NCBI GenBank assembly: GCA_963798955.1
Contig: CAWCVO010000002.1
Location: forward strand, 157,599 to 221,598
Direction: 5' to 3'
Origin: an uncultured Chloroflexia bacterium
GTDB taxonomy: Bacteria > Chloroflexota > Limnocylindria > Limnocylindrales > CSP1-4
Length of the DNA stretch: 64,000 nucleotides
Below, piece by piece: positions 12,052 to 20,856 of this stretch. Under the pieces are notes generated by a model, which saw nothing but the letters and a program-made list of their open reading frames with translations, had not been told where the DNA came from and did no database searches. Position numbers and translations under genes: made by a program. The stretch's first letter is position 1; every line of letters starts with the position of its first letter.

Positions 12052-13283
12052 GTGGCGACGACGTTACCTAAGGCTTCTACACGTGCTTCCTCGCGTGCCG
12101 CCCAACTTCAGTCGGAGCTGCGTCAACGCAAAGCGGAACTGGCGATCCTCGAGGAGGTCGGCCAGGCGCTCGGGCGGCATCTGGACCTCGACGCCATCGC
12201 TGAGTTGGTGGGCGAGCGGCTACACCAGACATTCCCGGATGTCGGTCTGTTTGTCGCCCTGTACGACGGCGCCACGAACATGATCAGCTTCCCGTACGAG
12301 ATAAAGGCCAGCGATGGTCAGCGTTACCACTCGGATCCGTTTGCGGCGGAAGCGGGGCTGACCGCGAAGGTGATCAAGTCGCGTCAGCCGCTACTGATCA
12401 GGTCGGCTGGCGAAGCCGAAAACGCAGGCGCGCTGACGTTCGGCGACAAGACCGAGTCCTGGCTGGGGGTCCCGCTGCTTGTCGACGAGGATGTGATTGG
12501 CGCCCTGGCCCTCGAGAGCGGCAGGCCGGGCGAGTTCGACAAGGACGATCTGCGCGTGGTCTCGGCGCTTGGCTCCACTACGGCGGTTGCCCTGCGAAGT
12601 GCGCGCCTGTTCGACGAGACCAAGCGGCTGCTGGCCGAGACCGAGCAGCGCAATGCCGAACTCGCGGTCGTCAACGAAATAGGCGCGGCGCTCGCAAAGC
12701 AGCTCGATTTCCAGGGCGTCATCGATGCCGTCGGCGACAAGGTCGGCGAAGTCTTCGGCTCGCGCGACCTCACCATAGCCATTCTCGACGAGGCGACCAG
12801 CACGGTCACCTTTCCGTACTGGTACGAGTTCGGTGTCCGCAACCGCGACGTGCCTCCGATGGCGCTCGGCGTGGGACTCACCTCGCGAATCATTTCAGAA
12901 GGACGGCCGCTGCGGTTGGGCACGGCTGCCGAGGCAGAGGCATTGGGCGCGGTCTACGTTGGCGACCGCAGCGAGTCGTACCTTGGCGTTCCCATCCGGG
13001 CCGGCCACAGGGTCATCGGCGCGCTGGCTGTATCGCGACACGAGCCCAATTCGTACGACGAGGCCGACGAGCAGCTGGTGATGACGATCGCCTCGAGCAT
13101 GGGCGTCGCCCTCGAGAACGCGCGGCTGTTCGACGAGACCAAACGGCTGCTGGCCGAGACCGAGCAGCGCAACGCCGAGCTGGCGGTCATCAACGAGATC
13201 GGCGAGGCGCTCGCCAGGCAGCTCGACTTCCAGGCAATCATCGACGCCGTCGGCGACAGGATCCGCTCGATCTTCAATGTCGT
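12052..13283 (+). CDS. N-terminal GAF-repeat segment of the giant hybrid sensor kinase, separated from the main ORF by frameshifts (possible pseudogene or sequencing artefact)
   Basis: GTG at 12052 preceded by GGAGG. The translation carries the same approximately 175-aa GAF units and [27 protein letters not shown] linkers as the downstream 1980-aa ORF. The frame is lost near 13283. Confidence 0.5.
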
Positions 13284-16200
13284 GACGGGAGCTGATCTCG
13301 CTGTACGACTCGGCGACGAACACGCTCCGCACGCCGTATCGGCATCGATCAGGGCGTCCGCCAGGAGCATCGAGGAGCAGCCCCTCGGTGGGATTGATGG
13401 CGATCGTGATCAAGGAGCGCCGGGCACTTCGCCTGGGCACCAGCGCAGAGGCAGATGCGCTGGGCGCGCTCGTCTTCGGAGCTGACGATTACGAGTCATG
13501 GCTGGGCGTGCCGATCCTTGCCGGTGACCGCGTTCTCGGTGCCGTCTCTCTCGAGCGTGCCCCGAAGAACGCGTTCAGCGAGTCGGACGAGCGTCTGCTG
13601 GCGACCATCGCCGCGAACCTCGGGCGTCGCGCTGGAGAACGCGCGGCTCTTCGACGAGACCAAACGCCTCCTTGGAGAGACGGAGCAGCGCAACGCCGAG
13701 CTGGCGGTCATCAACGAAATCGGCGAGGCGCTGGCCAAACAGCTCGACTTCCAGAGCACGGTCGATGCCGTTGGCGACCGAATACGCGAGGCTCTTCACC
13801 CGCAGGACATGTTCATCGCGCTCCTTGAGCCGGGCGGGCGTGAGATCAGCTTTCCGTACGTGATGCAGGCTGGCGAGCGCCGCACGACCACGACGATCCC
13901 GCTGGGCAAGGGTCTGACGTCGCGTGTGCTGAAATCTCGGCGTCCGCTCCGCCTGGGCACTTTGGCCGCGCAGATGCCGCTCAATCCGGCCTTCTCGCCC
14001 GAGATTGCCATCCACGAGTCATGGCTCGGCGTGCCAATCCTCGCCGGTAATCGGGCGATCGGCGTCGTCAACGTGAGCGACCATCGCCCCAACGCATACG
14101 GCGCATCCGACGAGCGTCTGCTGGCAACGGTCGCGTCCAGCATGGGCGTGGCGCTAGAAAACGCGCGCCTGTTCGACGAGACAAAGCGGCTGCTGGCCGA
14201 CACCGATGCCCGGGCCGGCGAGCTGGCGATCATCAACGAAATCGGCTCGGCGCTCGCCAGGCAGCTCGACTTCCAGGCGATCATCGAGCTGGTCGGCGAG
14301 CGTGTGGGAAAGATCGTCGGCTACCCAGACGTGGAGATCTGCCTCTTCGACCCGGCGACGAACCTGATCTCCTTTCCGTACAGCGTCGAAGACGGGAAGC
14401 GCTACGAAGAGGCGCCGATCGAACTGGGCGTTGGGCTGGTGTCGAGGATCATTCAGACCAACCGGCCGATTCGCGTCGGCAGTCTCGAAGAGGCGGACGC
14501 GCTCGGTGCCCTCACCGCTGGCGATCCCAACAGCACGATGAAGCAGTCGTTCCTCGGCGTCCCGATCGCGGTCGGCGACCGCGTGCTGGGAGCGGTGGAA
14601 ATTGCGGCGGAGCCCTTCAACGTCTTCACCGCCGCGCACGAGCGGCTGCTCTCGACACTCGCTTCGGCTATGGGCGTGGCCCTCGAAAACGCCCGGCTCT
14701 TCGACGAAACGCAGCGGCTGCTCCAGGACTCAAACGAGCGCGCAGCAGAGTTGGCGATCATCAACAGCGTCCAGGAGGGCCTGGCCGCCAAGCTCGACAT
14801 GCAGTCGATGTACGAGCTCGTGGGCGACAAGATCCATGAGATCTTTGACGCTCACGTCGTCGATATCGCACTCGTCGATTTGGCTACCCGGACCGTTCGG
14901 TTTCCTTACGCGATTGAGCGAGGGGTCAGGCTCGAGGACGAAGCCATCCCGCTGCGCAGCTTCCGCCGGGTCGTGGTCGAGACGCGCAAGGCCGTTCTCG
15001 TCAGGGATTTCGACGCTGAAGCGCTCGAAGACTCAGTCGTGCGCCAGGGTGAGCGCCCGCAATCGGTCCTGATGGTGCCCCTGATGTCTGGCGGAGAGAT
15101 CAACGGCATCGTGTCACTGCAGAACCTCGAGCGCACTGATGCGTTCTCCGAGTCTGACGTTCGATTGCTGACCACACTCGCCGGTAGCCTGAGCGTGGCC
15201 CTCGATAACGCGCGGCTTTTCGATGAGACGCAGCGACTGCTCAAGGAGACGGACGAGCGCGCGGCCGAGCTGGCGATCATCAACAGCGTCCAGGAGGGTC
15301 TGGCGGCCAAGCTCGATATGCAATCGATGTACGACCTCGTTGGGGACAAGATCCAGGAGATCTTCGACGCCCAGGTTGTCTCGATCGAGGTGTATGACCG
15401 CGAGACCGAGACAGAGAAATACCCGTACATATTCGAACGCGGCAAGCGCTTCGAGTATGCCGAGATGCCCTTTGGTGAGGTCGTTCGTCATCTCATGGAG
15501 GTGCGCCAGCCGCTGCTGATGAATGACGTCGACGCCTGGCAGGCGGATACCGGTGTGCGAATGAGGGTCGTCAAGGGCGAGATGTCGCTCTCGATGGTCG
15601 TCGCGCCGTTGATGTCTGGGGAAGAGGTTGTTGGTTCCCTGTCGCTCCAGAACCTCGACCGCAAGGACGCCTTCAGCGAAGCTGATCTCCGTCTGCTGAC
15701 GACGCTTGCCGGCAGCCTTAGCGTGGCGCTCGAGAACGCGCGGCTGTTCGACGAGACTCAACGACTGCTCAAGGAAACGGACGAGCGCGCTGCTGAGCTG
15801 GCGATCATCAATAGCGTCCAGGAAGGCCTGGCTGCCAAGCTCGACATGCAGTCGATGTACGACCTCGTCGGTGACCGGATCTGGGAGATCTTCGACGCCC
15901 AGGTTGTGAGCATCTACCTCTATGACAGCCAGGCAGAAGCCGTTGACTTCCGCTATGTGCGCGAACGGGGCGAGCGCATGGCGAATCTCAGGGTTCCGTA
16001 CACGCCACTGACCCGCCTGATCGTCAAGTCAGCGGGCCCGCTCGTGGTCAACGATCGCGACGAATTCTTTGCGGCCAACGGCATCGAGATGGAGGCACCG
16101 CAGGGCGAAAAGCCCAAGTCGATGGTCTTCGCGCCCCTGGTCAGCGGTGGGCGGCAGTTCGGCAGCATCTCGCTCCAGAACATTGACCGCACGCACGCCT

Positions 16201-19750: not shown

Positions 19751-20856
19751 GCGAACCGGTTGCGCTGATCGTCGACGACAGCGCCGTCAACCGGATGCTG
19801 CTCGCCCGCCACTTGATGTCGCTCGGAATCTCTTCGCGCGAGGCAGTCGATGGACGCGCCGCTCTCGATCTCCTGCGCGAGGGCAAGAGTGGCGTGGCAG
19901 TCGTGCTGCTGGACGTCGAGATGCCCGAGATGGACGGCTACGAAACGCTCGCGACGATCAAGTCCGACGAGTCCCTCCGTCATGTGCCGGTGATCATGGT
20001 CTCCGGCGTGGACGAGCTCGATAGCGTGGCGCGCTGCATCGAGCTGGGCGCCGCTGATTTCCTGACCAAGCCGTTCAACCCGGTCATCCTGGGCGCTCGC
20101 GTACGAGCCTCACTGGCAGACAAGCGGATGCGCGACCTCGAGACCGAGCATGCCGCTCGCCAGGCCGAACTGCTCGACACCATCGAGCGCCAGAAAGAGG
20201 AGTTGAGCCGTTTCCTGTCGCCACAGGTGGCGGCGCTGGTGTCGACCGCCGAAGGCCAGCAGCTACTGGCCGGCCATCGGCGCGAGGCGACCGCCGTCTT
20301 CTGCGACCTACGCGGCTTCACGGCGTTCAGCGACTCGGCCGAACCCGAAGAGGTGCTCGGCCTGTTGCGCGAGTACCACGCCATGATGGGCGCGCTCATC
20401 GTCGAGCACGGCGGCACGCTCGAACATTTCGCGGGCGACGGAATGATGGTCTTCTTCAACGATCCGGTGCCGCAGGCCGATCATGTCGAACGTGCCGTGC
20501 GCATGGCGGTGGCCATGCGCGAACGCTTTGGTGAGCTGGCCGCGCGGTGGGCCAAGCTGGGGTTCGAGCTGGGCCTGGGCATCGGCATTGCGACCGGCTA
20601 CGCGACTCTGGGCCGCATCGGTTTCGAGGGCCGCTACGACTACGGCATGGTGGGCGCGGCGGTGATCACCGCTTCGCGCCTCAGCTCGGCGGCCGAAGCA
20701 GGACAGATCCTGCTCAACCCGCGCGCCCACGCGGCAGTCGAGGCGCTGATCGACGGCGAGGACGTCGGCGCGCTGCAGCTCAAGGGCTTCGCTCGCCCGA
20801 TCCCGACCATTAACGTGCTCGGCCTGGTGTCGCAGGGCGAGTCAGTTCCCGCCTGA
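19747..20856 (+). CDS. response regulator with class III adenylate/guanylate cyclase output domain (REC-CYCc)
   Basis: REC motifs (IVDDS…LLDVEMPEMDG…K) followed by a cyclase catalytic domain (AVFCDLRGFTAFSD… FAGDGMMVFFN… GIGIATGYATLGRIG). Confidence 0.85.
   Translation: MSEPVALIVDDSAVNRMLLARHLMSLGISSREAVDGRAALDLLREGKSGVAVVLLDVEMPEMDGYETLATIKSDESLRHVPVIMVSGVDELDSVARCIELGAADFLTKPFNPVILGARVRASLADKRMRDLETEHAARQAELLDTIERQKEELSRFLSPQVAALVSTAEGQQLLAGHRREATAVFCDLRGFTAFSDSAEPEEVLGLLREYHAMMGALIVEHGGTLEHFAGDGMMVFFNDPVPQADHVERAVRMAVAMRERFGELAARWAKLGFELGLGIGIATGYATLGRIGFEGRYDYGMVGAAVITASRLSSAAEAGQILLNPRAHAAVEALIDGEDVGALQLKGFARPIPTINVLGLVSQGESVPA

Follow-up and report, generated by a model that had tools for sequence, protein, structure and literature searches.

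Introduction

The stretch of DNA analysed here (the window, 64,000 nucleotides from an uncultured Chloroflexia bacterium) raises the question of whether a long cytoplasmic sensor kinase, broken in its reading frame, and the two small genes that follow it make up one signalling pathway with a cyclic nucleotide as its output. A sequence-only reading of positions 12052-20856 had proposed a complete phosphorelay, running from a hybrid kinase with about ten to eleven tandem GAF modules through a stand-alone histidine phosphotransfer (Hpt) protein to a receiver-adenylate/guanylate cyclase. We found that this locus, on the plus strand, is a three-gene operon encoding a hybrid kinase, an Hpt protein and a receiver-cyclase, and the trio lies exactly where it had been placed. 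The operon is genuine and conserved, it is built from known parts and it is common in its lineage. We observed the domains, all of the residues that accept phosphate or bind the catalytic metals, the overlapping gene ends and the conserved linkage of the three genes, which probably form a soluble multistep phosphorelay that ends in a receiver-controlled cyclase.

A three-gene operon with the residues of a phosphorelay

Four serial open reading frames (ORFs) were found on the plus strand (11779-13485, 13455-19397, 19295-19750 and 19747-20856). The hybrid sensor histidine kinase gene (12052-19397) is split in the window assembly into the first two of them, ORFs 11779/12052-13485 and 13455-19397. 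Its start candidate is the GTG at 12052, with an AGGAGG at about 12035-12040, some 11 nt upstream, and the 91 codons preceding this GTG are without protein-like character. The kinase gene ends with a TGA stop at 19395-19397 which is overlapped by an in-frame TTG at 19394, the start of the stand-alone Hpt gene (19394-19750, plus strand, 118 aa). The stop codon of the Hpt gene at 19748-19750 is in turn overlapped by the GTG at 19747 that starts the receiver-class III cyclase gene (19747-20856, plus strand, 369 aa). The stop/start overlaps between the genes (TTGA and GTGA) that had been described before are present at both junctions, each with a length of 4 nt.

All of the earlier domain calls (GAF, HisKA, HATPase_c, receivers, Hpt and cyclase) were upheld by a Pfam scan, far above the curated cut-offs, and none of the NCBIfam models attains its cut-off against the kinase, Hpt and cyclase proteins. 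The kinase core (17856-18539, plus strand) consists of a HisKA domain (78.1 bits; cut-off 26.9) and a HATPase_c domain (90.3 bits; cut-off 26.4). The H-box histidine, His1944 (codon 17886-17888), is found in the motif AMSHEIRTP, and the N, G1 and G2 boxes are present, with Asn2061 in the ATP-binding box and a GGTGLGL motif. Two Response_reg domains (E 2.4e-45) occupy 18609-19364 on the plus strand. The first receiver contains DD2189, Asp2234 (D2234; codon 18756-18758), S2264 and K2281, and the second contains ED2329, Asp2373 (D2373; codon 19173-19175), T2403 and K2425. By its domains, its H, N, G1 and G2 boxes and its complete receivers, the protein is classed as a hybrid sensor histidine kinase and is predicted to autophosphorylate.

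The small protein encoded next has an Hpt domain (PF01627; 55.3 bits, cut-off 24.6) with a phosphorylatable His61 (codon at 19574) in the motif AHTLKSS, which matches the HxxK(G/S) helix of such domains. The regulator has a Response_reg domain (89 bits) with D56 as the phospho-accepting aspartate. The residues expected for a complete phosphorelay are hence all there, namely H1944 of the kinase, D2234 and D2373 of its receivers, H61 of the Hpt protein and D56 of the regulator.

Conservation of the operon

Kinase orthologues in three further loci (L002, L003 and L004, with 64%, 64% and 53% identity) are followed by an Hpt gene (118-124 aa) and a receiver-cyclase gene (362-379 aa) with 4-nt overlaps, and in L004 the trio is kept although the flanks are entirely different. 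A cyclase-seeded search of species-representative genomes gave 479 relatives; 80 loci were fetched and 69 of them had enough flank. A kinase core lies just upstream of the cyclase in 66 of the 69 loci, and a kinase core with at least three GAFs in 59. An Hpt gene is adjacent to the cyclase in 53 of the 69 (31 upstream and 22 downstream), and these 53 are all the loci with enough flank that have the Chloroflexota type of cyclase (His-Gly-Ile at three active-site positions, see below). Hpt and cyclase homologues that never co-occur with multi-GAF kinases had been named beforehand as grounds for giving up the proposal, and among the Chloroflexota-type loci the co-occurrence was found in 53 of 53.

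One group of loci (L033-L058, for example L044:4769-11915), with cyclases about 62% identical to that of the window, has the order kinase, receiver-cyclase, Hpt, which was confirmed by Pfam in L044. The tblastn match of the window cyclase is about 370 nt longer in these loci.

That the three genes are mere neighbours, the kinase serving other regulators and the Hpt protein and cyclase serving another kinase, appears highly improbable to us. Hybrid kinases and Hpt proteins can be promiscuous, as with HptB of P. aeruginosa, and this would favour such an arrangement. However, the 4-nt stop/start overlaps occur at both junctions, here and in the orthologues, the trio is kept despite the wholly different flanks in L004 and despite the permuted order kinase-cyclase-Hpt, and no other conserved signalling gene is found nearby.

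We did not find an extra conserved partner, such as a phosphodiesterase or a cyclic nucleotide (cNMP)-binding effector, downstream of the trio in 47 loci. Beyond the trio the synteny is at the level of the lineage only, with PALP-CBS, LGT, VIT1, ROK and aldehyde dehydrogenase genes as the neighbours, of which LGT, ROK and aldehyde dehydrogenase were met in the downstream search. Upstream of the 53%-identical operon in L004 (L004:1466-3826), a Crp-type regulator (cNMP_binding and HTH_Crp_2) and a receiver-EAL protein are encoded. Both are possible cyclic-nucleotide readers, and none equivalent is found beside the operon of the window.

A separate Hpt gene was not found in the Methylomirabilota/proteobacterial clade of cyclases (L074:9542-11107 and P0271), which has a different active-site signature (D-R-D-G-N-R). 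The receiver-cyclase of this type carries an N-terminal HisKA segment, consisting of the dimerisation and histidine phosphotransfer (DHp) part only, without an ATPase domain. In the L074 region a single-domain receiver gene lies between the DHp-receiver-cyclase and a 14-GAF hybrid kinase. The DHp segment of these receiver-cyclases may replace the Hpt protein as a built-in phosphotransfer domain.

Frame breaks in the kinase gene

The kinase reading frame had been described as frameshift-interrupted. In a three-frame translation the frame shifts twice within GAF module 3, near 13290 and near 13621 (an indel cluster at 13290-13625, plus strand), and the spacing of 521 nt at this module, which is not a multiple of 3, places the net frame change there. 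We compared three assemblies of the same species, the window, L001 and L085, which have 98.5-98.9% DNA identity. L001 is a 1.88-Mb ENA contig carrying the closest kinase homologue (P0003, 97% identity), and L085 was reached via cluster members of P0121, a cyclase 100% identical to that of the window.

Over positions 3401-28776 the window is 98.9% identical to L001 with 66 indels, which are clustered. Eight of the indels separate the two assemblies in module 3 (seven extra bases and one missing within 13290-13621 of the window), and nine separate the window from L085 in this module. Instead of the one frameshift that had been described, the interruption consists of about eight indels that cause two frame changes. 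L001 has a single frame break in module 3 and many extra bases at 18131-20144, which break its own receiver, Hpt and cyclase genes, the same genes being intact in the window. The frame of L085 stays open across module 3 and is lost instead at window position 16206, a site that the window reads without a break. Picking either the window or the L001 variant at each of the eight indels gives an open frame of 2446 aa with normal GAF sequence, and L085 aligns without gaps to this reconstruction over aa 1-1384 with 98.8% identity.

Because the three assemblies break at three different sets of sites, each of which is intact in another assembly, the kinase gene is very probably intact in the organism as one 2446-aa ORF, the breaks in the window being an artefact of the assembly or consensus. 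The frame breaks in module 3 are most likely artefacts of Nanopore-type metagenome assembly. The MFD metagenome-assembled genomes (MAGs) among the related genomes come from a Nanopore-only soil study (PMC12313526).

A true pseudogene in this strain, yielding no more than a fragment with two GAFs and possibly a kinase that lacks its N-terminal part, has to be weighed against this. The window does have two net frame changes, its assembly otherwise looks cleaner than L001, and its module 3 (13129-13649) shows about 6% substitution divergence from each of the two sister assemblies, in contrast to the near-identity of the kilobases on either side. L001 and L085 agree with each other at 28 of 35 sites in the module, and the divergence may reflect a strain recombination tract or a poor consensus. 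On the other hand, all of the shifted pieces are still GAF-like with no stop in the proper frame, the indel variants of L001 restore one open frame, L085 is in frame at module 3 and broken elsewhere, and L001 is broken at still other sites. A density of eight indels per 335 bp, in strains sharing about 99% identity, is a pattern of error and not of evolution, and the Hpt and cyclase genes stay intact and overlapping. We therefore consider a pseudogene improbable and treat the kinase below as one protein of 2446 aa.

Two other sources of the breaks were considered and rejected. Programmed frameshifting is rejected because the shift sites differ among assemblies of the same species and have no common signal. 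Paralogous modules as the source of the window-specific variants in module 3, by gene conversion or mis-polishing, gave no signal (19 versus 16 of the 35 sites). Over 18-25 kb the window differs from L001 and L085 by 44-66 single-base indels, which are clustered and hit different genes in each assembly, and other frameshifted-looking genes in the window may likewise be artefacts. Frameshifts in Nanopore-only MAGs, especially in genes with tandem repeats, should not be taken as pseudogenes or recoding.

The GAF array

The Pfam GAF and GAF_2 profiles matched two modules in the ORF read from 12052 (to 13485), one in the third frame at 13286-13630 (E 2.8e-12) and eight in ORF 13455-19397 (GAF_2 E 7.5e-117). 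The count of 11 modules agrees with the ten to eleven estimated earlier, and the inter-GAF linker string quoted at that time occurs as written. The modules are spaced in the DNA by 522, 519, 521, 522, 528, 519, 528, 528 and 504 nt. This period of about 520 nt is beyond the limit of Tandem Repeats Finder, which reported no repeat, and the spacings come from another repeat search.

Each of the 11 modules in the kinase is 166-186 aa long and has a C-terminal ...NA(R/T)L. Module 1 with the N-terminal helix (aa 1-186; 12052-12609, plus strand, as are the modules that follow) is divergent. Modules 2-5 (aa 187-881; 12610-14699), which contain the repeat families D3, D5 and D6, form an A-type sub-array with 48-58% pairwise identity, and modules 6-9 (aa 882-1581; 14700-16799) form a B-type sub-array with 58-66% pairwise identity. 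Modules 10-11 (aa 1582-1917; 16800-17807) are divergent and kinase-proximal, and they have one-to-one counterparts in other species.

The conservation is distributed unevenly within the modules. Identity within the B block is 88% for the connector with the first helix and 83% for the last helix, but drops to 44% for the GAF core. Where residues are identical, the codon is also the same for 68% of them in the linker and for 48% in the core. The linker is conserved mainly through selection on the protein, because about one third of the identical linker residues use different, synonymous codons. Recent gene conversion as the cause is only weakly supported by the same comparison (68% versus 48%). 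In an AlphaFold2 model of modules 7-8, the GAF cores have a pLDDT of about 90 and the helical connectors are 45-53 residues long, one of three having a four-residue break. Both modelled domains match the tandem-GAF regulators PDE2A, CyaB2 and PDE5/6 and the phytochrome GAF-PHY region in Foldseek. Coiled coils between GAF domains have been found before and were described as having poor sequence conservation (PMC1592074), whereas the connectors of this kinase are strongly conserved.

The description of the kinase as cytoplasmic agrees with the absence of a hydrophobic segment. No membrane segment was found in the 2446 aa by a Kyte-Doolittle scan, whose highest 19-residue mean (1.64) falls within a GAF strand.

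Sensor kinases with this many GAF modules had been called rare, and this does not hold. The kinase search returned thousands of relatives, and the best 120 homologues (1633-3462 aa) contain between 6 and 17 GAF modules (median 11). Chloroflexota (Limnocylindrales), Dormibacterota and Gaiellaceae are among their sources. The order of module 1, A-type block, B-type block, module 10 and module 11 is kept across species and the number of A and B copies varies, which fits gain and loss of tandem copies in the middle of the array. We found no paper on multi-GAF kinases of Chloroflexota in our literature searches.

What the GAF modules might bind

Among solved GAF domains the closest are those of two heme sensors, DevS and DosT (E 3e-17 to 7e-15), together with that of CyaB2 (E 1.3e-15), which binds cAMP. 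The positions of the NKFDE signature for cNMP binding (LVNK ... FDRNDE of CyaB2) were mapped via the CyaB2 alignment onto the alignment of the modules. The full signature was found in none of the 11 modules; modules 2-4 retain only F, D and E, modules 6-9 only N, F and D, and modules 1, 5, 10 and 11 fewer. The column aligned with the proximal heme-binding histidine (DevS His149) holds Gly in most modules, and a His in module 4 is three positions off this column. No conserved bilin-binding cysteine was found in or beside a GAF domain, as the whole kinase has three cysteines with only C762 in the array.

It had been suggested that the array binds the cyclic nucleotide of its own pathway, giving product feedback. 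In its favour, CyaB2 (E 1.3e-15) and PDE GAFs are among the profile matches, the best Foldseek matches are cNMP-regulated tandem GAFs, and cyclases of the subclade found here often occur as direct fusions with GAFs of this kind. However, the modules with all five NKFDE positions number zero, and the heme-binding DevS and DosT score at least as well as CyaB2, so that similarity in fold is uninformative on what is bound. Divergence within the modules is greatest in the pockets, where identity falls to 44% compared with 83-88% in the helices, and this speaks against a single ligand shared by all modules. Product feedback therefore has no support and we give it only a small chance, although individual modules might bind the product.

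The cyclase and its product

The regulator ORF (19747-20856) contains a Guanylate_cyc domain (PF00211; 68.1 bits, cut-off 21.9). Its nearest solved cyclases are CyaB of P. aeruginosa (3R5G; E 7e-36) and Cya2 of Synechocystis (2W01; E 5.7e-30). The linker between receiver and cyclase holds the segment LSRFLSPQVAALV, which we take to be cyclase-transducer-like.

Both metal aspartates are present, D187 in FCDLRGF and D231 in FAGDG. The two specificity positions are defined as the Lys three residues before the second metal Asp and the Asp/Thr seven residues before the Asn position. H227 occupies the first, where adenylate cyclases have Lys and guanylate cyclases Glu, and G300 occupies the second, where Asp or Thr (adenylate) or Cys, Ser or Gly (guanylate) is expected. 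The transition-state Asn-Arg pair is represented in the window cyclase by the Arg only (R311), with I307 in place of the Asn. The label 'adenylate/guanylate' given to this enzyme hence finds no counterpart in its active site, where the residues are neither Lys-Asp/Thr nor Glu-Cys/Ser/Gly. The adenylate cyclase pair (Lys with Asp/Thr) is absent, and the guanylate cyclase pair (Glu with a small residue, one of Cys, Ser, Gly, Ala and Thr) is also absent, as the first residue is His, the second being Gly as in Cya2. With His and Gly at the positions that specify the base, and with Ile replacing the transition-state Asn, the sequence does not allow the product to be named as cAMP or as cGMP.

The active-site signature was surveyed in 82 sequences, the window cyclase and 81 orthologues. 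Both metal aspartates are invariant (82/82). The signature D-H-D-G-I-R occurs in 56 of the 82 sequences, the window included, D-H-D-G-V-R in one, and D-R-D-G-N-R in 25, these being all 25 of the Methylomirabilota/proteobacterial sequences. The Asn of the transition-state pair is thus replaced by Ile (56) or Val (1) in the Chloroflexota clade and kept in the Methylomirabilota/proteobacterial clade. Among the 150 closest representatives of 50%-identity clusters, the canonical Lys is found in only one, and Arg, His or Gln dominate. The strict conservation of the signature argues for an active enzyme. Residues other than Asn are known at this position in active enzymes: the guanylate cyclase XC_0250 has Leu (PMC3770947) and the adenylate cyclase Ma1120 has Ala (PMC4215837). 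The guanylate cyclase Cya2 has Gly at the second specificity position (PMC4215837). Our literature searches found no characterised enzyme with the His-Gly-Ile-Arg combination and no paper on class III cyclases of the His/Arg type.

An alternative is that the cyclase domain is impaired or non-canonical, either making a product other than cAMP (cGMP or a pyrimidine cNMP) or acting mainly as a regulated dimerisation or binding module. The His in place of Lys or Glu, the Gly in place of Asp or Thr and the Ile in place of the transition-state Asn all fit this, as does the occurrence of the canonical Lys in 1 of the 150 closest cluster representatives. Guanylate cyclases share the Gly (Cya2) and a hydrophobic residue at the Asn position (XC_0250) (PMC4215837, PMC3770947). 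The PADLOC models of pyrimidine cyclases (PycC) also match (E 2.8e-22), although this match reflects general class III homology (68 bits in Pfam) and no Pycsar-type effector gene lies nearby. Against it, the Arg and the two metal aspartates never vary, and the signature as a whole is conserved as strictly as one would expect of an active enzyme. In addition, other non-canonical specificity pairs still give adenylate cyclase activity, as in Rv1900c and Rv0386. We judge this alternative to be possible but, on the whole, unlikely. A Pycsar anti-phage system was rejected as the identity of the locus, since its neighbours are Hpt, kinase, LGT and VIT1 genes and no conserved downstream effector occurs in 47 loci.

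The His-Gly-Ile-Arg subclade also occurs as direct fusions (P0245-P0250 and P0289) with the architectures GAFx4-cyclase, GAFx2-cyclase, GAF-cyclase, receiver-GAF-cyclase and dCache-HAMP-cyclase. Judged from these architectures, the link from GAF to cyclase recurs in two wirings, direct fusion and phosphorelay. The fusions would be one-protein versions of the pathway.

The proposed phosphorelay

The sequence of transfers, whether regulation is positive or negative, the ligands and the nucleotide product are matters of inference. In the proposed mechanism, small ligands or cell states would be sensed by the divergent GAF pockets, and the signal would run along the conserved helical spine of the dimer to set the autophosphorylation of His1944. 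The phosphoryl group would pass from His1944 to a receiver aspartate of the kinase (D2373 or possibly D2234), then to His61 of the Hpt protein and finally to Asp56 of the regulator (His-Asp-His-Asp), where phosphorylation would switch the homodimeric cyclase on or off.

Several points weigh against this reading of the locus. Consensus scans for a promoter and a terminator upstream of the kinase gave no match. The donor to the Hpt protein may be either kinase receiver, through D2373 or D2234, and no ligand can be named for any of the GAF modules from their sequences. The lost Asn and the non-canonical specificity pair of the cyclase could mean low or altered activity. Finally, the divergence of module 3 described above sits uneasily with a kinase gene that is simply intact.

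Comparison with known systems

The closest parallel in a single protein is CyaC of Spirulina and Anabaena (receiver-GAF-GAF-histidine kinase-receiver-class IIIb adenylate cyclase), which shares with the present system GAF sensing, His-to-Asp transfer and a receiver placed directly before a class III cyclase. CyaC has the canonical specificity residues of adenylate cyclases. It is a single chain that carries two GAFs and lacks an Hpt step, whereas the operon described here spreads a relay of four steps over three proteins, with 11 GAFs and a cyclase of the His/Gly/Ile type. In Spirulina CyaC the cyclase is activated when the adjoining receiver is phosphorylated (PMC3009899).

The passage from a hybrid kinase core through an Hpt protein to a response regulator is shared with the LuxQ-LuxU-LuxO, RcsC-RcsD-RcsB and P. 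aeruginosa HptB pathways. The best NCBIfam matches, all below their cut-offs, are TorS, BarA, LuxQ and ArcB for the kinase core, and the Hpt region of TorS and LuxU for the Hpt protein. These relays have membrane or periplasmic sensors and act on transcription factors or partner switches, whereas a soluble GAF array and a cyclase take these places here.

GAF domains joined by long helices also regulate a cyclic-nucleotide enzyme in CyaB1 and CyaB2 of Anabaena and in the mammalian PDE2/5/6, which are the best structural matches to the modelled di-GAF. They differ in having two GAFs, the NKFDE signature, cNMP ligands and a direct fusion to the enzyme, while the present array has 11 GAFs with no full NKFDE signature and would act via a kinase. 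Metagenomes do contain proteins in which this cyclase signature is joined directly to GAFs, as GAF(x1-4)-cyclase fusions (P0246, P0247 and P0250). DevS and DosT of M. tuberculosis, the closest solved GAF sequences, are likewise soluble GAF-regulated kinases with a ...NARL terminal helix, but they have two GAFs and are not hybrid kinases, and their heme histidine aligns with Gly or other residues here.

The window cyclase shares the class III fold, both metal aspartates and the Arg with P. aeruginosa CyaB (3R5G) and Synechocystis Cya2 (2W01). Cya2 has the same Gly at the second specificity position, and XC_0250 has a hydrophobic residue at the Asn position as found here (PMC3770947). The first specificity residue differs, being His here, Lys in CyaB and Glu in Cya2.

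If the proposed relay is right, cyclic-nucleotide synthesis in a large group of uncultured soil Chloroflexota (Limnocylindria-like) is tied, by way of a full phosphorelay, to a cytoplasmic sensor array of unusual length. The product of a class III cyclase with His and Gly as specificity residues and without a catalytic Asn bears on how specificity is encoded in this class, and the array raises the question of how many GAF signals are summed along one helical spine. The invariant non-canonical active site of the cyclase and its recurrent pairing with GAF arrays might come as a surprise to specialists. A bolder proposal, which we put forward as speculation and hold to be somewhat less likely even than the impaired or non-canonical cyclase weighed above, is that the His-Gly-Ile-Arg cyclases make a nucleotide other than cAMP, for example cGMP or a pyrimidine cNMP, as an unrecognised second-messenger output that is widespread in soil Chloroflexota and is wired directly or through a relay, with the 6-17 GAFs serving as a combinatorial multi-ligand integrator in which divergent pockets sit on an invariant spine.

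Other features of the window

Two small genes resembling nonribosomal peptide synthetases are found at 51376-52917 (carrier protein and thioesterase) and 57530-60319 (adenylation, carrier and thioesterase), with a gene for a thiamine pyrophosphate-dependent enzyme (54682-56463) between them. Two ORFs, one of 779 aa at 60359-62698 on the minus strand and one of 454 aa at 36779-38143 on the plus strand, have no Pfam match and may be spurious antisense frames given the G+C content of the window. A 526-aa ORF on the minus strand (37935-39515) matches the profile of the NiFe hydrogenase large subunit in two stretches, the best of which covers only profile positions 1-87 of 508, and it may be a divergent hydrogenase or another indel-damaged gene.

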